From Candidatus Saccharimonadales bacterium (GTDB lineage: Bacteria > Patescibacteriota > Saccharimonadia > Saccharimonadales > DASZAF01): a DNA stretch of 64,000 nucleotides. Positions within the stretch are counted from its first letter, which is position 1, and each line of letters opens with the position of its first letter. The notes under the pieces were generated by a model that had not been told where the DNA came from, did not search any database, and saw only the letters and a program-made list of their open reading frames with translations. Position numbers and translations under genes: made by a program. The stretch lies in assembly GCA_035945435.1 (NCBI GenBank), contig DASZAF010000016.1:359-64358 (forward strand), written 5' to 3'. Positions 1-13,044 of the stretch are shown here, piece after piece.

Positions 1-469
1 TGCCAGCTGTTTTGCCTTTAATCTGCACTCCTCGATACTTCATAAAGTCAGCATCAAAATCTAGTGGGAAGTTGTCTTTAATTAAACGGGGAGTTTGCCG
101 AGCTAGATTAAACATCATAGTAACTGCCCACTCTGCTACGGCCTGAGTTGAGAAGTTCTTGATATTACAAATAGGTATGCCACGCTTATCGGCAGTGTCT
201 TTATCAATATATCCAAAGGCAGTTGAAGCAACTAAAATAGCTTTAAGATTAGGTATATTCTCATAGTCTTTACTTGTGAGCTTCCAACCAATGTAGTCAG
301 GGTTAAGACACAGCAAGCGTTCTTCATTACCAGCGAACAACTCTGGCGTTTCACTCAATGGTTTTACATCAGTTATAACAGTAAGGTCTGCTTTGCTTTC
401 AGCTAATTGTTCCTCAAGCTTTTCATCAACTAACTTTGTCCATAGAGGGTCAAATATAAATACTTTCAT
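1..469 (-). CDS. D-isomer-specific 2-hydroxyacid dehydrogenase family protein (N-terminal part only; the gene runs off the left edge)
   Basis: Not in the ORF track because it is truncated. Reverse-strand translation from the ATG at 469-467 gives MKVFIFDPLW...AILVASTAFGYIDKDTADKRGIPICNIKNFSTQAVAEWAVTMMFNLARQ...GVQIKGKTAG. This is typical of the catalytic-to-NAD-binding domain junction of D-2-hydroxyacid dehydrogenases. Confidence 0.6.
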   Translation of the reverse strand, partial: MKVFIFDPLWTKLVDEKLEEQLAESKADLTVITDVKPLSETPELFAGNEERLLCLNPDYIGWKLTSKDYENIPNLKAILVASTAFGYIDKDTADKRGIPICNIKNFSTQAVAEWAVTMMFNLARQTPRLIKDNFPLDFDADFMKYRGVQIKGKTAG

Positions 470-503
470 GGTCTAATAATACCTTATTTACCGCCTAAAA
501 TTG

Positions 504-523
504 TATAATACAGATAGTAGGAG
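504..523 (+). promoter_or_regulatory. Putative -10 box (TATAAT, 504-509) and Shine-Dalgarno (AGGAG, 519-523) for the DUF4236 gene
   Basis: The motif ttgTATAATa is followed by tAGGAGat, which lies 6 nt before the ATG at 530. Confidence 0.35.
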
Positions 524-529
524 ATATGT

Positions 530-1693
530 ATGTCATTGCGATACCGCAGGTCAATAAGACTAGCAAAGGGAGTAAAGCTTAATCTAACTAAAACTGGTGT
601 AGGCATGACTGTTGGCGGTAAAGGCGCACACTATTCTGTTCATAGTAGTGGACGTCGCACCGCTTCAGTGGGTATGCCAGGCACGGGACTTTACTACCAA
701 AAGCGAACTAGTAGCAAATCACGCGATGCCGTCACACCACGCACGACCACTGCACCACAGCCGAGTGTACATGCTACACCGGCACAGCAAAAACAAGCTA
801 ATGCGATAGGAAGTACAGATGACGCGCTAAAGGTGACAAGTGATAGCTACGCACTATTTCGTACACAACTTACTACTCTGCTTGAATGGCGTAAAGTAAA
901 ACGTGCTGAGGTTACAGAGGCAAAGTCACAGCTTAAAACATTGACTGCTCACTACAATCGAAGACGCGCAATGGTGTTGAAACGATTTTATGTTGACGCA
1001 GAAGCGGCGATGAACCAGCAAGCAGAGGTAGTAGCGTCACTTGAGCAAGAACTCAATGAGAAGTCCATGAGTTTGTCTTTTGCAAATAGTCCACAATTTG
1101 CCAGCACATGGACAGACTGTGTCACTACGTTTAATGAGCTAATGGGGAGCGAACGAGTCTGGGACATCACATACTCAACTGCCGTAAACAAGTTCAAAGA
1201 CCGGAGCGTTGCTAACAATAGCTTCAATCGTACTTTGATACAAGAAACTCCCGAGCCATTGGCATACATAAATAGTGATGTTGACTGCTTAGCATTACCT
1301 GGTGCCAATAATTCAAGTATCTACATTTATCCAACGTTTCTCTTAATCTTTAGGAGTTACCATGAGTTTGGCATCTTCGACTTGAAAGAGGTTCGCCCTG
1401 GAATACATTTGACCAAGTTTATCGAAAGCGAAGGAGTGCCAAAGGATACTGTTGTCGTAGGTCAAACTTGGTATAAGACCAACAAAGACGGTACCAAGGA
1501 CAAACGCTTCAACGGCAACTACCAGATACCCATAGTTCAGTATGGAGAGCTGCTATTTGAGAGTGCTAAGGGACTGCAAGAGTTCTATATGTTCAGCAAC
1601 ATTAAGGCGTTTGCTTCATTTTCAAAGGCGCTTGCAGCACACTACCAAGTAATCGCAAAAACAAAAACTCAAGCAACGGCTATAAGAAGCTAG
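530..1693 (+). CDS. DUF4236 domain-containing protein
   Basis: The N-terminus MSLRYRRSIRLAKGVKLNLTKTGVGMTVGGKGAHYSV matches the DUF4236 signature (basic R-x-x-K-G-V-x-L-N-L-S/T-K-x-G). The C-terminal 200 aa have no family I recognise. Confidence 0.6.
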   Translation: MSLRYRRSIRLAKGVKLNLTKTGVGMTVGGKGAHYSVHSSGRRTASVGMPGTGLYYQKRTSSKSRDAVTPRTTTAPQPSVHATPAQQKQANAIGSTDDALKVTSDSYALFRTQLTTLLEWRKVKRAEVTEAKSQLKTLTAHYNRRRAMVLKRFYVDAEAAMNQQAEVVASLEQELNEKSMSLSFANSPQFASTWTDCVTTFNELMGSERVWDITYSTAVNKFKDRSVANNSFNRTLIQETPEPLAYINSDVDCLALPGANNSSIYIYPTFLLIFRSYHEFGIFDLKEVRPGIHLTKFIESEGVPKDTVVVGQTWYKTNKDGTKDKRFNGNYQIPIVQYGELLFESAKGLQEFYMFSNIKAFASFSKALAAHYQVIAKTKTQATAIRS

Positions 1694-1750
1694 ACGCTAC
1701 TACAGTTGCTTAGCATTAGCCTTCTAAGTGAGGTTTATAATATATATGGT

Positions 1751-3112
1751 ATGAGCGCAAGGAAGAATAGTAAGAAATCTCAAAAAGCATACAAACCAAA
1801 GCCGCCAAAGGTAGGTACTGATGTTGGTGAAGAAGAGAAACGCTATAAAGCATTTACTGAGCTGGCTATAAAAGGCGGTGCTGAACTTCGTAAAAAACTC
1901 AAGTTAAGCGAAGATGCGTTCTCATTAGTCTATGGCCCTAATACTGGTAACCCCAAGAAATACTATCTTACGGGGGTTTTGAATGAAGTCGAAAAGGCCG
2001 GTATGGCCATGATGTATACGGCTGACTTTGTCGTAGAAAGCAAGAAAAAACCAGAGCCAGAAATAACTGACGCTACAGGTTATCGGATTGCGAACAATGC
2101 TATCCAAGTCAAGATTGATGAATTAACAGTTTCTGAGCGAAAGTTGACCGAAACGTTGGTTGACTTAGTGGGTTTTCGGCGCGCAGATGAGGCAGACTAT
2201 TATCGACATTACATCGTACTCCACGAATTAGATGCCAAGAAGAAAATCCAGAATGACATGCATGAGTTTTCAGGAGTGAAGAGTAAAAACCTTGCTTTCC
2301 AGATTGAAGAACTTGAAAAACAAGCTGATGCGCTAGCGGCCAAGCTTGACCCAGCAAAGTGCTGGTATGCCAAGAAGCGTCGTGGCGTTCTGACAAGGAA
2401 TATCAGCACGTTTAGCGAGCGATTTAAAGAAGTTTTCCCTTACATGAAAGAGTATGAACAGGCGACACTTTACACTTATGGCGCATCGTTTGGTAGACAA
2501 AGCGGGTTCCTGCATTCTGGTAAGCCAGTGGAGCGACGTAAGTTAACCCTTAATACTTTAGGTGCACACGTCGGTCGTATTGGCACTTTAGCACCGGGTG
2601 TTCTAACGGCTACAAAAGACCTAGGCCACTTAAACAACGTCAAAGGCATCTTAAAAACTATATCCGACGTAACAAAGAAGAATGATTACCCCATTAAGCT
2701 CTTCAGGCAAAAAACAAAGCCGAAAATAGTTGAGGGTGATTTTGTGGTAACAGTTTGGGGTAGCCTGGGTCAAGTTACAAAAGTTATCAAAAGTAAATAT
2801 GGTTATAAAAGCTTTCGAGTAAAGTACTTAACTGATATGCCCTTACCTGACATGCCGGTTGACGATTTTCCCGCTGAAAATGTTCGATTAGTCTACGCTA
2901 GGAAGCCACTCGTTGAGCAATTAAGGCAAGAAATACATAAGGCCACGCCCGAACTAAAACCTGGTACGAGAGAGCTAAACAAATTGATGACCGAGAGCGT
3001 TTTACACCTATGGAATAACGTCGGTCTCAAGGAGTTCACGCTTAACAACCCGAAAGCTGGTTATGAAAAAATTCAACAGGAAATTGATAGGATAAATTCT
3101 CCCAAGAAATAG
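1751..3112 (+). CDS. Hypothetical protein (453 aa, lysine-rich N-terminus)
   Basis: Long ORF. The ATG at 1751 (MSARKNSKK) is preferred over the TTG at 1706 given in the track. No recognisable domain. Confidence 0.45.
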   Translation: MSARKNSKKSQKAYKPKPPKVGTDVGEEEKRYKAFTELAIKGGAELRKKLKLSEDAFSLVYGPNTGNPKKYYLTGVLNEVEKAGMAMMYTADFVVESKKKPEPEITDATGYRIANNAIQVKIDELTVSERKLTETLVDLVGFRRADEADYYRHYIVLHELDAKKKIQNDMHEFSGVKSKNLAFQIEELEKQADALAAKLDPAKCWYAKKRRGVLTRNISTFSERFKEVFPYMKEYEQATLYTYGASFGRQSGFLHSGKPVERRKLTLNTLGAHVGRIGTLAPGVLTATKDLGHLNNVKGILKTISDVTKKNDYPIKLFRQKTKPKIVEGDFVVTVWGSLGQVTKVIKSKYGYKSFRVKYLTDMPLPDMPVDDFPAENVRLVYARKPLVEQLRQEIHKATPELKPGTRELNKLMTESVLHLWNNVGLKEFTLNNPKAGYEKIQQEIDRINSPKK

Positions 3113-3113
3113 G

Positions 3114-3410
3114 TTACTGACACTGCACTCCACCAACTCCTATTAAGTGCACAATAGACAGCCTAATCATATTTAATAATCCGTGGTCTACTAAGCAGTG
3201 CCCTGTAGCCTGCCTAACGCTGATTATTGACCATATGACGAGGCAGCCTACTAGAGCAAACCATGTAATAAGGTAAACTTTTGTGTCAATTCCTTCTGAA
3301 TGAGAAGGCTTTGAGCCGACTTTTGCCATGATAGTACTTATTAGAAGTGCGATAGCACCGCTAATAAAAACAGTCCCCCAAAATGTTAAGAACAGTACTA
3401 GCAATATCAT
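3114..3410 (-). CDS. Small membrane protein (98 aa, 2-3 predicted TM helices)
   Basis: Hydrophobic segments MILLVLFLTFWGTVFISGAIALLISTIM and VYLITWFALVGCLVIWSII. It lies downstream of the 76-aa membrane protein gene on the same strand. Confidence 0.4.
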   Translation of the reverse strand: MILLVLFLTFWGTVFISGAIALLISTIMAKVGSKPSHSEGIDTKVYLITWFALVGCLVIWSIISVRQATGHCLVDHGLLNMIRLSIVHLIGVGGVQCQ

Positions 3411-3459
3411 ATTATTCCAACCCTGCCTATTACTAGGGTCTGAGTGTATGTGGAGTTCT

Positions 3460-3690
3460 TCATGCTTTCTTACCTGACTGCTTGCGCTTGTTTAAAACCT
3501 TTTGTGCATACACGAGATACACGACAAGTCCAAAAATACTGCATAAAAATCCTATGAATTCCACAAGTAGCGCTTTCGGCATATCGACAGGCAATTTATT
3601 GCGCTTATAGGCTCTGTGGCAGTAAATCCAGAACAGTATAAATGCAATTGCTCCAATACTTTGACCAACTTGCTGTGCATTGCTTTCCAT
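3460..3690 (-). CDS. Small membrane protein (76 aa, 2 TM helices)
   Basis: A strong Shine-Dalgarno (GAGGAG) sits 5 nt upstream of the ATG at 3690. Two hydrophobic helices are present (IGAIAFILFWIY and FIGFLCSIFGLVVYLVY). Confidence 0.5.
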   Translation of the reverse strand: MESNAQQVGQSIGAIAFILFWIYCHRAYKRNKLPVDMPKALLVEFIGFLCSIFGLVVYLVYAQKVLNKRKQSGKKA

Positions 3691-3720
3691 TCAATCTCCT
3701 CTTGAATTTTCCTGCGGCCA

Positions 3721-3748
3721 AAAATAAAAAACGACACCGCAAGGTGTC
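3721..3748 (-). terminator. Intrinsic terminator (minus strand)
   Basis: On the minus strand the sequence reads GACACC-TTGC-GGTGTC followed by GTTTTTTATTTT. This is a perfect 6-bp GC-rich stem with a tetraloop and a U-run. Confidence 0.7.
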
Positions 3749-3853
3749 TAAAGCCATTCACAAGTCAGCTTTCGCCGAAATGCTTATGCGGTGCCGTTTC
3801 TCACGGCGAACCGCAATTAAATTGCGCTTCTGACTTGATAATGACTTTAGACG
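3722..3853 (-). ncRNA. Candidate structured RNA of about 130 nt (sRNA, or cis-regulatory leader of the two small membrane-protein genes)
   Basis: An extended -10 promoter lies just upstream. The helices are nested: 3746-3753/3845-3852, 3755-3758/3840-3843 and 3761-3768/3830-3837, enclosing hairpins 3771-3777/3804-3810 and 3812-3817/3821-3826. An intrinsic terminator follows. There is no ORF on this strand. Confidence 0.45.
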
Positions 3854-3859
3854 TTGGTA

Positions 3860-3868
3860 ATTATACCA
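3860..3868 (-). promoter_or_regulatory. Extended -10 promoter (TGgTATAAT on the minus strand)
   Basis: The reverse complement of 3860-3868 is TGGTATAAT. The predicted transcription start, about 7 nt downstream, coincides with the outer helix of the structured RNA. Confidence 0.45.
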
Positions 3869-3993
3869 TTTACCCCTGTAATCCCCAAGCATAAGCGTAA
3901 AAATAAAACCCCTAGTGCTTGCTGTCTAACCCCTTATACACGAAAATATAGGAACGGGTGTGGGCGAAAACAAGTATGAATATGGGAATGTAA

Positions 3994-4749
3994 ATGAACC
4001 TAAAAGCTCAAGTTAAACATATTGAAGGCAAAAGTTTAGCCTGGCGCAGGCTTGCCGTATTCTTTAGAGAAGAGTCAATCTATGAGCTAATCAAAACCCT
4101 GGGTATTTATTCGCGAAAAGGCTATTTTGAGTATGAGCTTAGGATTAGTAGTGGATACTATGACTGGACACAGGCTCGTCGGGATATACAGTTTCGCACA
4201 GATGTTTTTCAGCCGTCTCTTGGCTTTAAGGGGCTATATCAACAAGACCCCTATGGGTTACATGTTAAAGGCAAGTTACCACTCTCAGAGAAAGAAATAA
4301 ATGAAGTCGTAGAAAAACTGCCGCCTGATATAGCCGAAAAGTATTTATTATTCAGCCTGACAAATATCAATCAGGGCAAATTCATGAAGCTCATTTCTAA
4401 GTTACTAGATGAAAATAGTGCTGACGATGACATATTTTATCCACCAGTTCAGTATCGAGAACTGAAGGTTGATGGTGATGGAATTTATTATAAAAACAAG
4501 CCGTTTGAAATGGACTACCCCCATCGGCAAGCTATGCGTATTTTGATAGAAAAGAAAGGCAAACCTTGCGATTACGAAGATTTTAAGGACGATGACGCAG
4601 GGATTTTTATTAAAAGCATTAGAGAATACCCTAATATCAATCACACCATACGTAACCTTATCTATGAATTACGCGGTGAATTACTGATTAACACGGGTAA
4701 GCGACTTATCGAGAACCATGAAAAAGGTGGCTGGTATCTAGATATTTGA
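3994..4749 (+). CDS. Hypothetical protein with a possible C-terminal winged-helix (OmpR/PhoB-type) DNA-binding domain
   Basis: The C-terminus ...QAMRILIEKKGKPCDYEDF...INHTIRNLIYELRGELLINTGKRLIENHEKGGWYLDI resembles the trans_reg_C pattern (recognition helix plus a terminal beta-hairpin G-x-G-Y/W-x-L). The gene is monocistronic with its own terminator. Confidence 0.35.
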   Translation: MNLKAQVKHIEGKSLAWRRLAVFFREESIYELIKTLGIYSRKGYFEYELRISSGYYDWTQARRDIQFRTDVFQPSLGFKGLYQQDPYGLHVKGKLPLSEKEINEVVEKLPPDIAEKYLLFSLTNINQGKFMKLISKLLDENSADDDIFYPPVQYRELKVDGDGIYYKNKPFEMDYPHRQAMRILIEKKGKPCDYEDFKDDDAGIFIKSIREYPNINHTIRNLIYELRGELLINTGKRLIENHEKGGWYLDI

Positions 4750-4780
4750 CCGCAACTATTACTGACAACTGACTGACCCT

Positions 4781-4810
4781 ACACCCCTCATACTCAGGGG
4801 TGTTTTTAGT
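4781..4810 (+). terminator. Intrinsic terminator
   Basis: ACACCCCT-catactc-AGGGGTGT forms an 8-bp perfect stem and is followed by TTTTTAGTTT. Confidence 0.75.
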
Positions 4811-4819
4811 TTAAGGAGC

Positions 4820-5071
4820 ATGTCTATGGATATGGACGAACCAGTCATTAGAATACACGATTTGGGGCTTGCGGCTGCGCTGGTGAGCCACGACTTCAAG
4901 TTACATGCTACTGACCGTGACCAAAATGGCCGCCTCTACTTTATCTTTAGACAAACTGACAACCTAACTCAAGACATTGACGCATATTGGGCTGACACAC
5001 TCGTCGTTAAGGCGCGGACGTACTCAGACAATATCAAGATGCTTAAATCACGGATTTACGGAGAGCGGTAA
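4820..5071 (+). CDS. Hypothetical small protein (83 aa)
   Basis: The ORF has a Shine-Dalgarno (AAGGAG) upstream. No confident family assignment. Confidence 0.4.
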   Translation: MSMDMDEPVIRIHDLGLAAALVSHDFKLHATDRDQNGRLYFIFRQTDNLTQDIDAYWADTLVVKARTYSDNIKMLKSRIYGER

Positions 5072-5073
5072 CT

Positions 5074-5271
5074 ATGCGGCTCAGTGCAAGTTTAATAGCG
5101 AAGTTTCAGAAAAGGTACTTTGAGACCTTCGGTGAAGCTATTACGGCGGAACTCGCCGAATCGGAGCTGTTGAGTCTTGCCGAGCTGGTAGAGATTACGC
5201 GGAAGTTAGTCAAAGCAACCAATAAGGGAAATGGCAATGAAAAACAATCAAGCACCAAAAACCACAGTTGA
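5074..5271 (+). CDS. Hypothetical small helical protein (65 aa)
   Basis: The ORF starts 2 nt after the upstream stop, which suggests translational coupling. No recognised domain. Confidence 0.35.
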   Translation: MRLSASLIAKFQKRYFETFGEAITAELAESELLSLAELVEITRKLVKATNKGNGNEKQSSTKNHS

Positions 5272-6754
5272 CCAAATAATTGCTGCCTTGACGGAAAGTG
5301 CTGTTAAGCTTTTTCACGACCAGTACAATGAGCCGTATATTGCTTACGACGGCAACGGCAGTAACGTCAGCAAAGTTCATTCAAATATAGCCAAGCTATG
5401 GCTAGTTCACTATTGTCACACCCAGCTAGGCAAAGTTCCTAGCACTGATGCAGTCAACCGTGTGCTGGATACACTGGCGGCACGCGCCCACTTTGACGGT
5501 AAGCAGCATGCTCTGGAAGCTCGCAGCGTCTACAACAAAGAGGGCTTGTGGTACGACCTTGGTGGCAGTGCTGTACATGTCACGCCGGAACGGTGGGAAG
5601 TCATCGAGCAGCCGCCAATCATTTTTAGGCGCTTCTCACATCAAAAACCCCAGGTTGTACCACGGCGCGGCGGAGACCTACGAGCACTCTTAAAGTATGT
5701 CAATATAACCGACGAAGCCGAACAACTACTGTTTCTGGTCTACGTTGTGGCAGCATTTATACCTGACTACCCGCACCCACTCTTAATCCTGCATGGTATA
5801 CAAGGTGCTGGTAAAACTACGCCGATGATGATTATGAAAGACCTGATTGACCCGTCGTCGCTTAGAGAGGGTTTTTCACTGCCCAGCAAAGAGAGTGAAT
5901 TTGCCCAAATCGCCAACCATCATTACTTCTTATTCTTCGACAACCTTTCGACGATGCCCGAAGCGTTTTCTGATACCCTGGCCAGGGCGGTGACTGGCGG
6001 TAGTTTTAGTAAGCGCGGCCTGTACACCGATGACGACGATGTTATCTACCGCTTTCAAAGGACTATTGCCCTTAATAGCATCAACCAGGTGGTCTACAAA
6101 TCCGACCTGCTAGACCGCTCAATCCTTATACATTTAGAGCGCATTAGCGAGGATAAACGCAAGCCGTCCCAGCTTTTCTGGGCTGAGTTTGAGCATGACC
6201 TGCCAGACATACTGGGTGCAATCTTTGATGTATCAGTTAAGGCTCTCGCGTTGCGACCAAACGTTAAGCTCGACAAAGCAACCCGAATGGCCGACTTTTT
6301 ACACTGGGGCTATGCTATTGCAGAAGCAGCCGGATATAGCGGCAAGGCATTCGAGCAAGCTTACTACGCCAACATCGCCACCCAGCATGACGAAGCGATT
6401 GAGGCCAATCCAGTCGCTCAGGCAATCATGGAGTTTATTAAAGACCAGGCAACGTGGACGGGCACGCCATCCGAACTATACGCACTGCTCACCCCGATAG
6501 CGTTCAAACTGGGGGTTAGTAATAGCCGAGGCTGGCCAAAAGATGCACCACGGCTTGGCAGGGTGCTGGAAATCCTAACCCCAAACCTTGCTGCTAAGGG
6601 TATCGTGCTAGAGCGGTCACGCGCTCAACAACGACTAATAACCATAACTAATACTACTGTCGTTACTGTCGTTACTGACGTTACCCCTGTAATAAATGCC
6701 TCTGATGATGACGGTACGACGGCAACGACGGCACAATCGGAGTTTAAGATGTAA
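5231..6754 (+). CDS. P-loop NTPase, phage/plasmid SF3 (D5/P4-alpha-like) helicase family; putative replication protein of the element
   Basis: Walker A is LHGIQGAGKTT and Walker B-like is YFLFFDNLS. Next comes LARAVTGGSFSKRGLYTDDDDVIYRFQRTIALNSIN...DLLDRSILIHLERI. That pattern resembles the D5/P4-type block (lTGgD-x-i-x-R-x-lY...f-x-p...N...d-x-a-x-x-R). Confidence 0.55.
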   Translation: MAMKNNQAPKTTVDQIIAALTESAVKLFHDQYNEPYIAYDGNGSNVSKVHSNIAKLWLVHYCHTQLGKVPSTDAVNRVLDTLAARAHFDGKQHALEARSVYNKEGLWYDLGGSAVHVTPERWEVIEQPPIIFRRFSHQKPQVVPRRGGDLRALLKYVNITDEAEQLLFLVYVVAAFIPDYPHPLLILHGIQGAGKTTPMMIMKDLIDPSSLREGFSLPSKESEFAQIANHHYFLFFDNLSTMPEAFSDTLARAVTGGSFSKRGLYTDDDDVIYRFQRTIALNSINQVVYKSDLLDRSILIHLERISEDKRKPSQLFWAEFEHDLPDILGAIFDVSVKALALRPNVKLDKATRMADFLHWGYAIAEAAGYSGKAFEQAYYANIATQHDEAIEANPVAQAIMEFIKDQATWTGTPSELYALLTPIAFKLGVSNSRGWPKDAPRLGRVLEILTPNLAAKGIVLERSRAQQRLITITNTTVVTVVTDVTPVINASDDDGTTATTAQSEFKM

Positions 6755-6824
6755 CACATAATCAAGATAACAATAAGGGGAAAGATATTTAAGATGCTAG
6801 TCAATAATTTTAAGGAGGTTAGAG

Positions 6825-7091
6825 ATGGACAAATTAAACAATAAAACCGGTATTACTTTTCGCCTACAAGTCAAAGACTATAAGTTCAGAAGTGATGAAG
6901 GCAACACCTTCGATTTTGAAGATTGCACCGATTTGCATAGACTTTTTGCTTGGGCAATCGGCCATGTTGTAGATGAGTATGTATTTGAAGAACTACTTAA
7001 AGGTGATATTTCCAATATAACGATTGTGCTAAGCCCTGATAACTTAAAGGAGGAAGACTTTGTGACCGAAAATACAGGGTATAAGCTCTAA
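6825..7091 (+). CDS. Hypothetical protein (88 aa)
   Basis: The ORF is preceded by the Shine-Dalgarno AAGGAGG. No recognised domain. Confidence 0.4.
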   Translation: MDKLNNKTGITFRLQVKDYKFRSDEGNTFDFEDCTDLHRLFAWAIGHVVDEYVFEELLKGDISNITIVLSPDNLKEEDFVTENTGYKL

Positions 7092-7158
7092 CAATATGGA
7101 GATAGATATGTACGACAACACTTTAATAAGCTATAATATAAATGTTTTCACATCTGGT

Positions 7159-7184
7159 AGACACGCTGTTCGTGTTTTTATTTC
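7159..7184 (+). terminator. Intrinsic terminator-like hairpin
   Basis: agACACG-ctgtt-CGTGTtt is followed by TTTATTT. Confidence 0.45.
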
Positions 7185-7194
7185 TGCTCTTCAA

Positions 7195-7259
7195 GGGCAG
7201 CATGGTGCAGAAAGAAGCGAATAGCGACTGGATGTGAAAACAGCCATGCTGTCCTTTTT
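7195..7259 (+). promoter_or_regulatory. Long-range hairpin plus T-run immediately upstream of the recombinase gene (possible attenuator)
   Basis: GGGCAGCATGG (7195-7205) pairs with CCATGCTGTCC (7244-7254) over 11 bp, including one G-T pair, with a 38-nt loop. TTTTT follows at 7255-7259, 16 nt before the ATG at 7275. Confidence 0.35.
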
Positions 7260-7274
7260 GATAGGAATAAAACC

Positions 7275-8924
7275 ATGAACTACTCAGAACTAAAATTTGC
7301 CTTGTACGCCCGTAAGTCCACCGAGGACGAGGGTAAGCAGGTTCAGTCTATAGAAGACCAGATACACTATATGCGGCAAAAAGCTGATGACTGTGGTATA
7401 AAGCTAAAACGCAAAGACATTATCACCGAGGAGAAATCCGCTAAGGCACCTGGTAAACGGCCGAAGTTTTTGCAACTAATTGCTGACATCAAAGCCGGTA
7501 AGTACAACGCTATAACCTGCTGGCAGACCAACCGCCTGGCTCGTAACCCCGAAGAAGCGGGTATTATCCAACAACTACTGCAAGACGGAATTATCAAGTG
7601 TATTGTGACCAGTGACCGAACTTACTACCCCGAAGACAATGCTGTGGTGTTTGCTGTAGAGATGAGCATAGCCAATCAGTTTGTCCGCGACCTTATGAAG
7701 AATGTCCGCCGTGGCATGTATTCCAAAGCCGAAAAAGGCTGGTACCCTGGCAGGCCACCAATCGGCTACAAAAACGACCGTGAGGAGAAAATCATAATTG
7801 AAGACCCTGAGCGCTTTGATATGGTGCGCCGTATGTGGGACATGATGCTGACTGGTACCTACACCGTTAAGGCAATCGGTGAAATTGCCGATAAAGAATG
7901 GGGCTTACGCACTATCAAGCGCAAGAAAAGCGGCAATAAACCGCTGTCTTACAGTGGTGTTTATGATATGTTCCACAATCCCTTTTATAAAGGCGTCATA
8001 CGCTACGGTGGTACAGAAAACCCTGGCAAGCATACAGCAATGGTTACCGAGGAAGAATATGACCGCGTGCAAAGCCTTATACACACCAAACTACCGGAAC
8101 GGGCAAAGAATAAGGAGTACATCTTTGCTTTTCGTGGCATGCTTAAGTGCGGTGAGTGTGGCTGCTCTATAACACCGCAACATACCGTGACCACTAAGAA
8201 AAGCGGTGTTGTTCATGAGTACGACTATTACCGCTGCACACTCCGCCGCCGTGATTATAAATGCACCCAAAAGAAGTACCTAACCGAAGACAATCTCAAC
8301 GAGCAGATTAAGCAGGAGCTAAAGACGCGCACCATCATGCCACGCTTTTATGAGTTGGCAGTTATGGCTTTGCAAGAAATGAATGAAGATAAAATCACCA
8401 AGCAGATTAAGGTGAGCGAAACGCAGAACAAGGCCATTGTCACCAAAGAAACCGAAATCCGTGAGCTTGGCCGCATGCGCTACCGTGGCGAGTGTCCTGA
8501 TGATGAGTTCTACGCCTCTGAAAAGGATAAGCTTGACCAAGAACTCAAAGACCTCAAGAAAGCCCGTGAGAAAGCTGAAAAACGAGCTAATGACTGGCGA
8601 GCTGTAGCAGACGAAACTTTTAGCTTTGCCCGTTATGCCGAAGAAGACTTTAATAGCGACAGCCTTGAGAATAAACGGAAGGTCTTGGCAAAACTCGGTC
8701 AGAACCTCACGCTGCTAGATGGAAAAATCCATTTTACCCCTAATAAATACATGGTGCCGGTGCAACAGGCATATCCAGACCTTGCAGCCCGCTTAGAGGC
8801 CGTTAGAAACGCCCCACAACAGATACGAGAACGGGTTGAAGCAGAGGTCAAATCTGAATGGTACACCCGGCAGGATTCGAACCTACGACCTTCGGCTCCG
8901 CAAGCCGACGCTCTATCCAGCTGA
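7275..8924 (+). CDS. Large serine recombinase (resolvase/invertase N-domain, recombinase domain, zinc ribbon, coiled coil)
   Basis: The N-terminus KFALYARKSTEDEGKQVQSIEDQ carries the catalytic Ser motif. Also present are WQTNRLARN, a Cys-rich zinc ribbon (LKCGECGCSITPQ...YYRC) and a coiled coil. Codons 529-549 (8859-8921) are the antisense of tRNA-Arg. Confidence 0.9.
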   Translation: MNYSELKFALYARKSTEDEGKQVQSIEDQIHYMRQKADDCGIKLKRKDIITEEKSAKAPGKRPKFLQLIADIKAGKYNAITCWQTNRLARNPEEAGIIQQLLQDGIIKCIVTSDRTYYPEDNAVVFAVEMSIANQFVRDLMKNVRRGMYSKAEKGWYPGRPPIGYKNDREEKIIIEDPERFDMVRRMWDMMLTGTYTVKAIGEIADKEWGLRTIKRKKSGNKPLSYSGVYDMFHNPFYKGVIRYGGTENPGKHTAMVTEEEYDRVQSLIHTKLPERAKNKEYIFAFRGMLKCGECGCSITPQHTVTTKKSGVVHEYDYYRCTLRRRDYKCTQKKYLTEDNLNEQIKQELKTRTIMPRFYELAVMALQEMNEDKITKQIKVSETQNKAIVTKETEIRELGRMRYRGECPDDEFYASEKDKLDQELKDLKKAREKAEKRANDWRAVADETFSFARYAEEDFNSDSLENKRKVLAKLGQNLTLLDGKIHFTPNKYMVPVQQAYPDLAARLEAVRNAPQQIRERVEAEVKSEWYTRQDSNLRPSAPQADALSS

Positions 8925-8935
8925 GCTACGGGTGC
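8859..8935 (-). tRNA. tRNA-Arg (anticodon GCG), CCA encoded
   Basis: The minus strand reads GCACCCG-TA-GCTC-AGCTGGATA-GAGC-G-TCGGC-TTGCGGA-GCCGA-AGGTC-GTAGG-TTCGAAT-CCTGC-CGGGTGT-A-CCA. This folds into a cloverleaf with U33, G37 and a TTCGAAT T-loop. Confidence 0.85.
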
Positions 8936-10844: not shown

Positions 10845-11285
10845 CTAGCTGTTGGCTGAAGCGGCAGCCGAGACGTTCCCAATGACGAAGTGGACGATAA
10901 TCTGGGCAAAGATGACGATAATCAATCCGACTACGGCGTAGATAATCGTGTTCTTGGCATTCCCAATCTGCCCCGAATCACCACCTGAGACGATGTATCT
11001 GAATCCTCCGATGATGATCATGACGACAGAGACGGCGCCGATGATGAATGAGAGGATGTTAATCGCGCTCTTTACGACTGAGTTAATGCCTGTGTTGTTG
11101 TTGCTCTCACAAGTACTTGTCCCCGAGGAGATGACACCGTTACAGACGCCACCTTGGATGGGGTTGTTACCGTTGAGTGCTGCGTATGTGGCAGTGGCGG
11201 GTACCAGCGAGACCACAAAGAGAGAAAGGAACGTTGCCATGCTGACGGCAATAATCGTTCTGAACTTTTTAACAGCATTTACCAT
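10845..11285 (-). CDS. T4SS pilin-like protein (TrbC/VirB2-like), paralog 1
   Basis: The protein has a signal peptide and a short Cys-containing exposed region. These are followed by the shared block INILSFIIGAVSVVMIIIGGFRYIVSGGDSGQIGNAKNTIIYAVVGLIIVIFAQIIV, which is helix, G-G-x-R-Y-x-x-S-G-G-D loop, helix. It has its own Shine-Dalgarno (AAAGGAG). Confidence 0.7.
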   Translation of the reverse strand: MVNAVKKFRTIIAVSMATFLSLFVVSLVPATATYAALNGNNPIQGGVCNGVISSGTSTCESNNNTGINSVVKSAINILSFIIGAVSVVMIIIGGFRYIVSGGDSGQIGNAKNTIIYAVVGLIIVIFAQIIVHFVIGNVSAAASANS

Positions 11286-11381
11286 ATCTTTAAAAGCTCC
11301 TTTGTTGCTGATTTTTCTTCATTATATATCACTAATGTTAGGTTTGCACTAGTCTAGATCTGATCGGTGTGTTAGCTATCG

Positions 11382-11789
11382 CTATTGGGTGACTTTGCCG
11401 ATGACGAAGAGAACGATGATTTGAGCAAAAAGAGTGATGGCAAGACCGACCATGGCGTAGATAATCGTGTTCTTGGCACTGGAGATGGCATTTGAGTCGC
11501 CACCCGAAAGAACATACCTCATGCCCCCGATTATGAGCATGATAACGGAGGCCGCGCCGACGATAAATGAGAGCAGATTGAGTGTATCCTTGATAAGCTG
11601 CGGCACCGACTGACCTTTTCCGACAGCACCAGTGTCGTTGAGGCCTTTTTGGGCATCGCCAACCGAATCAGCCAATACAGAATGAGTGCCACTTGGCAAC
11701 ACAATAAGAATCGCAGCCACGAGCAGACACGCTCCGGCAATCAGTCCTAGTCTTTGGTATGGTGAGAGCCTGGCAAGTGCGTTTCTCAT
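11382..11789 (-). CDS. T4SS pilin-like protein (TrbC/VirB2-like), paralog 2
   Basis: The shared block here is LNLLSFIVGAASVIMLIIGGMRYVLSGGDSNAISSAKNTIIYAMVGLAITLFAQIIV. An N-terminal TM/signal segment is present. Confidence 0.7.
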   Translation of the reverse strand: MRNALARLSPYQRLGLIAGACLLVAAILIVLPSGTHSVLADSVGDAQKGLNDTGAVGKGQSVPQLIKDTLNLLSFIVGAASVIMLIIGGMRYVLSGGDSNAISSAKNTIIYAMVGLAITLFAQIIVLFVIGKVTQ

Positions 11790-11851
11790 ATCTTTCCTCT
11801 ATCTCCGTGCCTTTCTATGCTGGTTATTATAGCTTATATCTTGTCACTGGA

Positions 11852-12280
11852 TCATAAATAACCCAGCACGAACTGGATGATGGCGGCCCCGAAGACAGCA
11901 ATTACCAGACCAGCCAAACCATAGATAATAGTATTCTTGCCGCTTTTAGTCCCTGACGGGTCACCGCCAGAGAGGACGTACCTCAAGCCACCGATTACCA
12001 TCATAAAGACCGAGATAACCGCAACGAAGTAGATAAAGACGCTCAGAAGAGTGGCGAGCACTCCGCCTTTACCGAGAATCCCGCCTCCTTTTTGTGCCTC
12101 ACAGACAGTTGCTCCAGGGTTGCTTTTACAGACACTCTGACCACCACCGGCGCCGAAGATGTCGAACGCATATGCAGGCGCCAAGCCTCCAAACTGCACA
12201 ACGGCAGTAACTGCCAGCACAAAAGTTATAGCCCAGGCTTTCAGGTTGAAGATTTGTCTTTGTAGATTCATATGTCTCAT
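11852..12280 (-). CDS. T4SS pilin-like protein (TrbC/VirB2-like), paralog 3
   Basis: The shared block here is VFIYFVAVISVFMMVIGGLRYVLSGGDPSGTKSGKNTIIYGLAGLVIAVFGAAII. A signal peptide ends in AYA. Confidence 0.7.
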   Translation of the reverse strand: MRHMNLQRQIFNLKAWAITFVLAVTAVVQFGGLAPAYAFDIFGAGGGQSVCKSNPGATVCEAQKGGGILGKGGVLATLLSVFIYFVAVISVFMMVIGGLRYVLSGGDPSGTKSGKNTIIYGLAGLVIAVFGAAIIQFVLGYL

Positions 12281-12291
12281 TCTATTCCCAC

Positions 12292-13044
12292 CTACAGTCC
12301 CGTGCCGAGCACAAAGCCAACTATAACCTGCGCGAAGAGTGCAAAGATAAGTCCAACTACTGCATATATAATTGTCTCTTTCGCTTGCTTAAGAGTGCCT
12401 GGGTCACCACCTGAACGGGTATAGGTGAGACCACCCCAAACAACCATGATGGCTGCCAGTACCGCTACGATCTGGAAGACAAGAGTCAAGATAAAAGCCA
12501 AAGTGCCGGCTTTGACGGCACCGGGGTTCGGCAGCCCGGAAGCCGCGTCAATCTTGGCTGCAAATTCACCGGCGATAAAGCCGATGATTCGAGCGGCCGT
12601 CACGGTAATGACAAGGCCAACAAGGGCATTCACGATAGTGTTACGGGCGTCGTTGATACTATTCGGCGAGCCAGCGCTGGTGGTATAGCGAATGGCGCCC
12701 CATATGACGAAGCCGACTGCTAAGATAGCGGAGAGTCGTAACAATATCTCAAAGACCGCAGCCACAATCAGCCAGATGCCGTCTGGTCCTGAGATAAAGG
12801 GCCTGCATTCCGTGCCTCCTCCATTGACGTTAACCTTGGTGCCTTGCAGGTATTCATACCAGGTCGGAAAAGCCAAAAAGCCAGTGTCTTGAGCAAGACT
12901 ACAAGGAGCGGGGTTGGTCATGTTGAAGAGAACATTAACCGGACTAGCTGCACGCGCAGGCATGACAACAACGAAGAGGCCCATCACCAGACCCAGGAGA
13001 CTGCCCGAGAGCATGATCCAAAGGCGAAATCGCATTGACATCAA
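12292..13044 (-). CDS. Tandem-duplicated (two-domain) T4SS pilin-like protein, paralog 4
   Basis: One 250-aa ORF contains two copies of the pilin block: ...VGFVIWGAIRYTTSAGSPNSINDARNTIVNALVGLVITV... and ...IMVVWGGLTYTRSGGDPGTLKQAKETIIYAVVGLIFALFAQVIV. Confidence 0.65.
   Translation of the reverse strand: MMSMRFRLWIMLSGSLLGLVMGLFVVVMPARAASPVNVLFNMTNPAPCSLAQDTGFLAFPTWYEYLQGTKVNVNGGGTECRPFISGPDGIWLIVAAVFEILLRLSAILAVGFVIWGAIRYTTSAGSPNSINDARNTIVNALVGLVITVTAARIIGFIAGEFAAKIDAASGLPNPGAVKAGTLAFILTLVFQIVAVLAAIMVVWGGLTYTRSGGDPGTLKQAKETIIYAVVGLIFALFAQVIVGFVLGTGL

Follow-up and report, generated by a model that had tools for sequence, protein, structure and literature searches.

Serine recombinases rarely integrate at tRNA genes; such integration is known for phiRSM1 at tRNA-Ser and for eight Mycobacterium AICEs (integrative and conjugative elements of actinomycetes) at tRNA-Leu, and AICEs also contain Prim-Pol replication modules (PMC3218068). 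Among the tycheposons of Prochlorococcus, 27 of 937 use a large serine recombinase (LSR) (bioRxiv 10.1101/2020.12.28.424599). The element considered here occupies the left part of a stretch of 64,000 nucleotides from a Candidatus Saccharimonadales bacterium (contig DASZAF010000016.1), which is hereafter called the window and is numbered 1-64,000 over its whole length; the loci and contigs of relatives fetched for comparison are denoted by L and a number. A sequence-only reading of this DNA had proposed an element integrated at the gene of tRNA-Arg and encoding an LSR as well as a replication protein, and this central idea is well supported by the motifs of the LSR, by the gene geometry shared with most related loci, and by the distal attachment sites of relatives. 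Its remark that a serine recombinase at a tRNA gene is doubly unusual is fair, phiRSM1 and the AICEs being precedents. Mobile elements, said there to be rarely documented in Saccharibacteria and other bacteria of the Candidate Phyla Radiation (CPR), are better represented than was assumed, as 120 Saccharibacteria prophages have been listed (PMC10746230).

Positions 1 or 530 to 8867 of the window very probably represent the integrase-proximal part, at least 8.3-8.9 kb long, of an integrated element belonging to a Patescibacteria-wide family of self-replicating elements of ~6-10 kb. The gene at 7275-8924 (+), encoding the LSR of 549 aa in its integrated, tRNA-tailed form, contains the domains Resolvase (PF00239, E 2e-16), Recombinase (PF07508, E 1e-8) and Zn_ribbon_recom (PF13408, E 6e-12), and matches the integrase family phrog_95 with E 1e-66. 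In the LSR family alignment of 28 members, the motif Y-A-R13-K-S15, residues R87 and R90, the zinc-ribbon cysteines C292, C295, C321 and C330, as well as W529 of the window LSR, are invariant; the residue preceding R87 is N in the window LSR and D, N or S across the family. By alignment, the window LSR appears to be full-length and free of visible inactivating changes, with the catalytic and zinc-ribbon residues kept, so that the truncation or inactivity considered fatal to the original proposal was not found. When the contig index was queried for an exact copy of the LSR, no record was returned.

The gene of tRNA-Arg(GCG), the target of integration, is located at 8859-8935 (-) and is intact (ARAGORN; Rfam 68.9 bits). 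The LSR gene had been described as lying at the very end of the element and touching this tRNA gene; the adjacency is confirmed, but the relation is closer than mere touching, as the LSR open reading frame (ORF) runs antisense over 66 of the 77 nt of the tRNA. The last 22 residues of the LSR (WYTRQDSNLRPSAPQADALSS) are the antisense translation of tRNA-Arg(GCG), and in the LSR frame the TGG antisense to CCA encodes Trp, the T-loop being translated as D-S-N. At the proximal junction (attR), the core TGGTACACC occupies 8859-8867 and is complementary to CCA, to the discriminator and to the five final acceptor-stem bases; the right end of the element is thus defined to within 9 bp. In L006, L012, L014, L029 and L040, the distal (attL) and proximal junctions have this 9-mer as their common core, and we infer that the crossover at attR falls within 8859-8867. 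The anticodon GCG of the window tRNA-Arg is encoded genomically; the usual bacterial anticodon for this tRNA is ACG. The Arg isoacceptors linked to LSRs in relatives have the anticodons GCG, CCG and TCG.

Scanning GTDB, with one genome for each species, by means of a profile gave 80 LSR loci, which together with the window make 81. The LSR ORF overlaps a minus-strand tRNA gene by 12-129 nt in 69 of the 81 loci, and the TGG antisense to CCA is in the LSR reading frame in 67 of those 69. The targets are tRNAs for Arg (GCG, CCG, TCG), Asn, His, Gln, Trp, Glu, Leu, Ser, Ile, Met and Asp, and twelve tRNA types are involved in the overlap. The 80 loci are labelled as Saccharibacteria, Magasanik-, Falkow-, Uhr-, Adler-, Woese-, Berkel-, Peri- and Curtissbacteria, Paceibacterota and others. 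Tails of the type W-[YL]-x-R-x-D-S-N-x-R-P end nearly all of the top 120 LSR homologues. Exceptions among the 81 loci are mostly cuts by contig ends, or genes of tRNA-Asn interrupted at the anticodon loop. The element is apparently a member of a large Patescibacteria-wide family that seems not to have been described before; no description of serine-recombinase elements at tRNA genes of CPR bacteria or Saccharibacteria was found in open-access papers and bioRxiv, subscription literature and catalogues of LSRs lying outside this scope.

Two observations concern particular members of this set. In L011 (~2130-2300), L054 (~11600-11800) and L061 (~11590-11800), the LSR adjoins a tRNA-Asn gene that diverges from the tRNA sequence exactly at the anticodon loop and is not detected by ARAGORN. 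Group I introns have been described in tRNA-Asn genes of Patescibacteria, and the interrupted genes of these three loci are consistent with such introns (PMC13011429). The titles 'uncultured Gammaproteobacteria bacterium' are attached to loci with LSRs of the CPR type (L033, L034, L037, L048, L054, L058, L059, L068 and L078), and records so titled include an 886-kb 'chromosome', OZ246416.1; for genomes of such size and content, these labels look wrong.

In relatives, attL is located 6.2-10.3 kb upstream of the tRNA gene, which gives the sizes of the elements. Such sites were identified in 13 loci, and junctions of the types attL and attP, the latter being the attachment site of the free element, amount to 18 in all. 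Arg-type attL sites consist of TGGTACACC, followed after 9-10 nt by GAAGTTCAAAC (L006, L007, L008, L012, L014, L029, L040 and L073); Asn-type sites consist of TGGCTC, followed after ~6 nt by GATAGAGGA.GTTATAACC (L010, L013, L016, L023, L024 and L028). The shared core is therefore 9 nt long in the Arg type and 6 nt in the Asn type. Left of the attL cores lies unrelated host sequence, usually with a terminator hairpin ~12 nt off, and right of them lies a conserved arm (P' arm), coding in the frame of the LSR. The frame started by TGG is open for 15-24 codons at the 18 sites, and the peptide W-[YL]-x-x-[IVL]-x-[ED]-V-x-T-x-[IL] is encoded at 16 of them, with the exception of those in L014 and L033. 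Stop codons are present in every reverse frame of the P' arms, and pairwise substitutions at codon positions 1, 2 and 3 number 34, 30 and 101 in the Asn-type arms and 155, 112 and 219 in the Arg-type arms.

The peptide encoded by the P' arm is also found as the native end of LSR homologues that have no tRNA-like tail, a minority represented by P0043, P0048, P0083 and P0108. In contig L107, the LSR sequence is followed by TGGTACACC and then by GCGATAAAGGAAGTTCAAAC, with no tRNA, which constitutes a junction of the attP type; the same configuration is found in L031, P0083 and P0106, on large contigs. Because the P' arm is coding in the LSR frame, and because LSRs with the native tail and the junction of L107 exist, attP must be placed within the LSR gene, at its 3' end, and integration would swap the C-terminal tail of the protein. 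The window LSR is the integrated form. The free form of the LSR would end in the conserved helix-like peptide x-[IVL]-x-[ED]-V-x-T-x-[IL], and the integrated form in residues of antisense-tRNA origin. Judged from the junctions, the crossover must take place within the shared core, namely, within CCA, the discriminator and the first bases of the 3' strand of the acceptor stem.

A displaced 3' fragment of the tRNA is absent from positions 1-8858 of the window, and in relatives the 6-9 bp core alone is repeated; direct or inverted repeats of the tRNA were not found in the window either. Two other candidates for attL, a 24-nt repeat in L033 and a 27-nt fragment in L098, were rejected as tRNA pseudo-fragments, the right sides of which have no P' arm. 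The last ~40 nt of the LSR coding sequence contain, in many relatives, a hairpin and an A-run (L006 ~11560-11600, L029 ~11580-11618, L007 and L040), which on the tRNA strand correspond to an intrinsic terminator ~12 nt past CCA. In these relatives the terminator encoded within the LSR gene probably replaces the host terminator displaced to attL. The window LSR has no such 3' hairpin and A-run. A separate fragment of C-terminal LSR coding sequence, followed by the core and a P' arm (...EVKSWYAFLNDVRTLIWEDIP*), is present at 19195-19250 of L001/L004, 7.5 kb beyond tRNA-Arg on the side away from the element, where the G+C content is locally ~40%.

The proposed mechanism of integration would be as follows. 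The LSR would recombine attP, located in its own 3' coding region and having the form ...AAATCTGAA-TGGTACACC joined to the P' arm, with the chromosomal site attB, composed of the 3' tip of the tRNA gene and the downstream terminator region and having the form of the terminator flank joined to TGGTACACCCGGCAGG. The crossover would occur within CCA, the discriminator and positions 71-72, and the tRNA would stay whole because the few terminal bases that it gives up are replaced by the same bases. Integration would replace the last 15-24 codons of the LSR gene with antisense-tRNA codons, and the original tail codons, now orphaned, would stay behind at attL; on excision the LSR would regain its native tail, and the circle would be replicated via the helicase, or via the fusion of Prim-Pol and helicase encoded by some relatives. 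For transfer from cell to cell, natural transformation, vesicles, a helper phage, or a host pilus or an apparatus similar to the type IV secretion system (T4SS) may be considered as possibilities only.

The same element end occurs in different chromosomal surroundings. One identical 36-nt end (CTAGTTAAAGAAGTTCAAACCATCATTACAAGTAAT) stands beside at least six unrelated flanks (L029, L110, L111, L112, L113 and L116), and the presence of one end at different flanks indicates mobility. An exact-pattern scan of metagenome contigs gave 12 additional attL sites, the core of which is also TGGTACACC. Where the sequence sufficed, the LSR was found at the expected distance, which corresponds to elements of ~8.0 kb (L112) and ~6.5 kb (L117). 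Paired attL-type sites 0.4-2.3 kb apart are present in L006 (1584 and 3878), L023 (1845 and 2269), L028 (616 and 1674) and L029 (2609 and 3654); together with the attP-form LSRs on large contigs, they fit tandem accretion and decay of elements at a hot spot. In L100, the gene of a helicase, the matching region of which is 88% identical to that of the window, is coupled to the gene of an Asn-type LSR located at tRNA-Asn, the LSR clade of L100 being ~47% identical to the window LSR. This pairing indicates that modules have been exchanged between lineages.

Several results weigh against the assignment of the window copy to this family of mobile elements, or against parts of the proposed mechanism. 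No attL, second core, P' DNA motif or orphan tail peptide was found between positions -358 and 8858, and the full extent and present mobility of the copy are left undefined by the missing attL. A strict empty site in the same species was not found, the closest locus, in L098, being rearranged and scarred. For contig L107, no terminal overlap indicating circularity was detected, and no circular contig was recovered. A scan for dyad symmetry gave no clear centre of the crossover, which the shared core confines to 6-9 bp, and no recombination directionality factor (RDF) or transfer function was identified.

The comparison with an empty site, which the sequence-only reading had proposed, was thus successful in part: a tRNA-Arg(GCG) gene 91% identical to that of the window and free of an LSR element, flanked by short tRNA fragments, was found in L098 and is the nearest to an unoccupied site, but it does not come from the same species. 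A genome scan with the 238-aa flanking protein gave 271 pattern matches and no relative. In L098, the intact tRNA gene is located at 5049-5125; a 27-nt copy of the tRNA 3' end, preceded by GAA like the end of the window LSR, is located at 4850-4878, and a 23-nt copy of the tRNA 5' end with its flank at 5228-5250, with a transposase gene of the IS1595 type nearby.

On the left, the window begins with the N-terminal part of a gene of the 2-hydroxyacid dehydrogenase type at 1-469 (-), the homologues of which contain PF00389 and PF02826, and which may be either cargo or host flank. The Logan contig L099, 100% identical to positions 1-7682 of the window, extends 358 nt further to the left without a junction, and the dehydrogenase ORF is intact there over at least 275 aa. 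Homologues of this gene are few, are often split, and are found in non-syntenic variable regions; L098 alone is informative, containing a dehydrogenase fragment near the same neighbourhood of a 240-aa protein, Hsp20 and pilin as in the window, but in the opposite orientation. Two readings follow: attL is located just past the window, in which case the element is at least 9.2 kb long, a length within the size range of the family, with the dehydrogenase as cargo, or it has been lost by rearrangement. Under the second of them, which is rather unlikely, the element integrated at tRNA-Arg and a later rearrangement near 470-530 removed attL, leaving an immobile island with an intact LSR. The lack of attL and of an orphan tail in the window and L099, the opposite orientation of the dehydrogenase in L098, suggesting inversion or rearrangement at this spot, and the decayed elements and scars common in the family (for example, L109, L119 and L098) speak for such a remnant. 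On the other hand, every core gene is intact, including that of the 549-aa LSR, the elements of relatives reach 10.3 kb when just 9.2 kb is visible left of the tRNA here, and the dehydrogenase gene, having the lowest G+C content in the window (38.8%), could itself be cargo. A boundary at ~470-530, as first suggested, with the element spanning exactly ~470-8858, would place attL in the 60-nt gap between the genes of the dehydrogenase and the DUF4236 protein and the crossover at the TGG of 469-471. The pentanucleotide ATGGT does occur at both 467-471 and 8857-8861, there is a similarity of the flank 'tactttcaTGG' to the host arms rich in T at attL of relatives, such as 'cactttcatTGG' in L111, and the dehydrogenase neighbours the same host genes in L098. 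A match of 5 nt, however, is expected by chance about once per kb, the site, with a score of ~10 of 26 in the comparison with attR, ranks lower than several random sites, and the sequence after TGG (TCTAATAATACC...) contains neither the DNA motif nor the peptide motif of verified P' arms. Moreover, the ribosome-binding region of the dehydrogenase gene would fall inside the element, and the zone of low G+C continues to the left of ~500. No attL was found at this place, and such exact boundaries are accordingly quite improbable.

The general nature of the element could also be explained differently. A satellite similar to phage-inducible chromosomal islands (PICIs) and Staphylococcus aureus pathogenicity islands (SaPIs), dependent on a helper phage in the same host for its induction and packaging, would agree with the size, with the core of integrase and primase/helicase, with the fold match to the primase-helicase of SaPI5, with the cargo gene of the DUF4236 protein, matching a phage protein family, and with the existence of Saccharibacteria phages and prophages (PMC10746230). 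However, terS and genes for capsid remodelling, packaging and phage interference were found neither here nor in the inspected relatives, and scans of IMG/VR gave distant relatives of the LSR alone, with at most 35% identity, and no matches to the attL pattern, which makes a satellite an improbable explanation. The notion that the LSR is a host invertase or resolvase adjoining a tRNA gene by chance could appeal to a weak PHROG match to a DNA invertase and to the missing attL in the window; it is effectively refuted, and retains hardly any probability, in view of the three-domain LSR architecture linked to variable cargo and replication genes, the defined attL of relatives, the identical element end at different flanks, the patchy distribution, and the many different tRNA targets. 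The preferred explanation remains the integrated element of the Patescibacteria-wide family, visible in the window from its integrase-proximal side.

Position 72 of the target tRNA deserves separate consideration. The wobble pair G1.U72 is present in all readable tRNA-Arg(NCG) genes adjacent to LSRs (17 of 18, the 5' end being called one base off in L003), as well as in three further occupied or remnant sites, namely, the window, L109 and L119; TGGTACACC is the antisense of the tRNA tip carrying U72. Unoccupied tRNA-Arg genes contain C72 in three of four cases (L098, L083 and L062) and U72 in L073, and the C72 variant of attB has the sequence TGGTGCACC. Both attL and attR carry A, and attB therefore had A before integration. 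Position 72 may be part of the crossover dinucleotide, or it may be essential for recognition; if it is in the dinucleotide, a single base of the tRNA would decide whether the gene can be targeted. Linked to this is the tentative suggestion that the exchange of the tail serves as a sensor of the integration state, tuning directionality or stability, with base 72 of the tRNA deciding targeting. Such a sensor would be a serine-integrase counterpart of integration-dependent switches and might act, for example, by altering a C-terminal surface that binds the RDF or the coiled coil. The extreme C-terminus of phiC31 integrase contributes to the RDF-binding surface (bioRxiv 10.1101/2025.05.02.651858), and by this analogy a functional role of the tail swap is plausible.

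The core of the family has the gene order RNA motif, 251-aa protein, DUF5659 protein, 65-aa ORF, D5/SF3 (superfamily 3) helicase, small ORF and LSR. The helicase gene of the window, located at 5231-6754 (+), encodes a protein of 507 aa. No sequence match to this protein was found in Pfam or NCBIfam, and no meaningful one in PDB when searched by sequence only, so that its assignment depended on the predicted fold. The AlphaFold model, built from 44 sequences, has a predicted local distance difference test (pLDDT) score of 85.3, and the top matches in Foldseek were PrimPol of African swine fever virus, the C-terminal region of NrS-1, Cch of SCCmec, the SaPI5 primase-helicase and E5 of monkeypox virus, with E of ~1e-6 to 1e-7; the match to Cch (5dgk; E 7e-7, template modelling score ~0.39) is no better than those to other D5-like helicases. 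The Walker A motif is GIQGAGKTT, in which G189, Q191, G192, G194, K195 and T197 are invariant (G-x-Q-G-x-G-K-x-T). Homologues with 85-88% identity are fusions of 750 aa with Prim-Pol and PriCT_1 domains (PF09250/PF08708), and the Prim-Pol domain is absent from the window protein. More distant homologues, with 30% identity, are encoded by small plasmids of Methylobacterium, Methanothrix, Streptomyces and Stanieria and by Microbacterium phage Zeta1847, where the protein is annotated as primase/helicase. The predicted fold and the Walker A motif agree with the earlier designation of this protein as SF3/D5-like with a P-loop, and its assignment as a replicative helicase of the D5/SF3 type holds at the level of the structural model.

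A structured RNA motif of ~150 nt, with its own -10 box and intrinsic terminator, is located at 3718-3870 (-) between the divergent operons. The DNA of the motif is ~84% identical to that of elements whose LSR proteins are only ~45% identical, and its minimum free energy (MFE) is -54.5 kcal/mol, with a z-score of -6.3. No match was found in Rfam. Covariance model R1 identified 13 copies, every one of them inside LSR elements, and 29 of 37 pairs covary in the alignment fitted to the model, compared with 10 of 38 in an independent alignment of six sequences. Copies are located in L002 (5603-5757), L021 (4799-4947), L101 (6986-7133), L016 (3769-3921), L024 (6606-6755), L023 (8170-8322), L012 (5657-5812, +) and L014 (6067-6224, +), and further copies in L100, L028, L026 and L035. 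For six sequences, RNAalifold proposed another pairing, of the anti-terminator type, between an internal segment and the 3' half of the terminator; the MFE structure of the single sequence was preferred, as it covaries far better, but the alternative may also form. The leftward operon always begins 7-40 nt downstream of the motif, with a first ORF the family of which varies; it is therefore likely to be an element-specific small RNA or a transcription-attenuating leader, rather than a metabolite riboswitch of one gene family. As an RNA specific to these elements, it is a candidate for a new RNA class.

The leftward operon downstream of the motif comprises two small membrane-protein ORFs, of 76 aa at 3460-3690 (-), beginning 27 nt past the terminator of the motif, and of 98 aa at 3114-3410 (-). 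The rightward core operon begins with the gene of the 251-aa protein at 3994-4749 (+), after which a terminator-like hairpin is located at 4781-4803. This protein has no match in Pfam; homologues in the same position, with 28-30% identity, were found in 9 loci, and its C-terminal resemblance suggests that it may be a winged-helix regulator. Next are the gene of the DUF5659 protein at 4820-5071 (+; PF18903, E 6e-9), the commonest companion of the LSR, with tblastn matches in 47 fetched loci, and the 65-aa ORF at 5074-5271 (+), overlapping the start of the helicase gene and having an identity of 95% to its counterpart in L001 and of 51-59% to those in L002, L003 and L100-L106. Between the genes of the helicase and the LSR are the 88-aa ORF at 6825-7091 (+), found in this element alone, and the 42-aa ORF at 7096-7224 (+), a homologue of the small ORF overlapping the LSR start codon in relatives (blastp identity of 40-54% to L001_62, L002_83, L003_55 and L100_63), which is conceivably an accessory or directionality factor.

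Left of the leftward operon, the gene at 530-1693 (+) encodes a DUF4236 protein of 387 aa (PF14020, E 8e-21; full-length match to phrog_17982, E 9e-65), and the gene at 1706-3112 (+) a protein without a known family of 468 aa, or 453 aa from the first ATG, for which no significant match was found in any library, the match to DUF5677 being weak and sub-threshold (E 0.032). These two proteins, as well as the 98-aa and 88-aa ORFs, are unmatched in the other fetched LSR loci, and the 76-aa ORF has a single weak match, in L100; the DUF4236 and 468-aa proteins thus appear to be variable cargo. In searches of the cargo and small proteins against Pfam, NCBIfam, PADLOC and PHROGs, DUF4236 and DUF5659 were the only informative matches. 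The cargo of relatives includes genes of a reverse transcriptase, an Hsp70-like protein with an AAA ATPase, a FitA/PIN toxin-antitoxin pair, an aldo-keto reductase and, judged by gene sizes alone, a probable type I restriction-modification operon; these were located in L100 (3059-3997), L101 (363-5831), L031 (12162-20583) and L001 (29-680 and 2978-3856). No genes for capsid, tail, packaging, conjugation or known defence systems were detected among the ORFs of the element with Pfam, NCBIfam, PADLOC and PHROGs.

The G+C content of most genes of the element is 37-47%, and that of the helicase gene 49.8%, the mean for the rest of the window being 49.9% (sd 2.7 in 1-kb windows). In tetranucleotide usage, the element is at a distance of 24-28 from the remainder of the window, vs 10-19 elsewhere (arbitrary units), the most deviant usage being found in the first 6 kb. 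The sliding-window check of G+C and k-mers recommended in the sequence-only reading accordingly shows an atypical composition of the element region, and the lower G+C content noted there applies to most genes, but not to that of the 507-aa protein. All the ORFs it had named are present, the candidate regulator is indeed followed by a terminator-like hairpin, and the statement that capsid, tail and conjugation genes are absent agrees with the library searches; the two small membrane-protein ORFs are not divergent from each other, as it had them, but tandem, both on the minus strand. Further to the right, at 10845-13044 (-), the window contains four tandem paralogous genes of small membrane proteins with the common motif G-G-x-R-Y-x-x-S-G-G-D; PF18895 (T4SS_pilin) was assigned to genes of L098 at the matching position.

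The significance of these elements is that they appear to constitute a major family in a phylum of tiny genomes with few known vehicles of gene exchange. The targeting of tRNA tips, normally the territory of tyrosine integrases, is based here on serine integrases and has diversified over at least 12 tRNA types. The attP embedded in an ORF offers a natural experiment on the LSR C-terminus and directionality, and LSRs with short conserved targets at tRNA tips might be used for integration into the genomes of Saccharibacteria and other Patescibacteria, the genetic manipulation of which is difficult.

Among known systems, the staphylococcal cassette chromosome (SCC) is similar in being a small element, neither conjugative nor viral, with one or more LSRs and a helicase of the D5/SF3 type, inserted into a conserved housekeeping gene so close to its 3' terminus that the gene is not inactivated. 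The target, however, is rlmH in SCC and a tRNA tip here, the host phylum is different, the LSR is no orthologue of Ccr, its scores with the NCBIfam models of CcrA, CcrB and CcrC are 46-85 bits vs cut-offs of 700-900 (CcrC 85 vs 900), and a single LSR, with an ORF spanning attP, is present here. With AICEs, the element shares a serine recombinase at a tRNA gene; replication genes of the Prim-Pol type are frequent in AICEs, and homologues of the window helicase are found on Streptomyces plasmids. AICEs differ in having Tra of the FtsK/SpoIIIE type, a domain absent from every ORF of the window element. In phiRSM, the recombinase is a small resolvase-like enzyme of a filamentous phage, and for neither phiRSM1 nor AICEs is an attP embedded in an ORF reported in PMC3218068. 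Tycheposons are likewise cargo elements at tRNA genes of streamlined genomes, with site-specific integrases and primase/helicase modules, but they use tyrosine recombinases overwhelmingly, and belong to other gene families and another host phylum. Islander-type tRNA islands contain a tyrosine integrase, whereas the sole recombinase here is a serine one, and the distal direct repeat of a tRNA 3' fragment expected for such islands is not present in 1-8858. SaPIs and PICIs correspond in size range, in the combination of an integrase with a primase-helicase initiator, and in variable cargo, but SaPIs use tyrosine integrases, and the genes for packaging and helper interference are absent here. An attP located within a gene is known from the integrase of fuselloviruses of the SSV1 type and from integration-dependent immunity in mycobacteriophages, both based on tyrosine recombinases. 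As in those systems, the integrated and free forms of the element would encode different proteins; there, the integrase is split or the repressor is truncated, whereas here the last 15-24 residues of the LSR would be exchanged.

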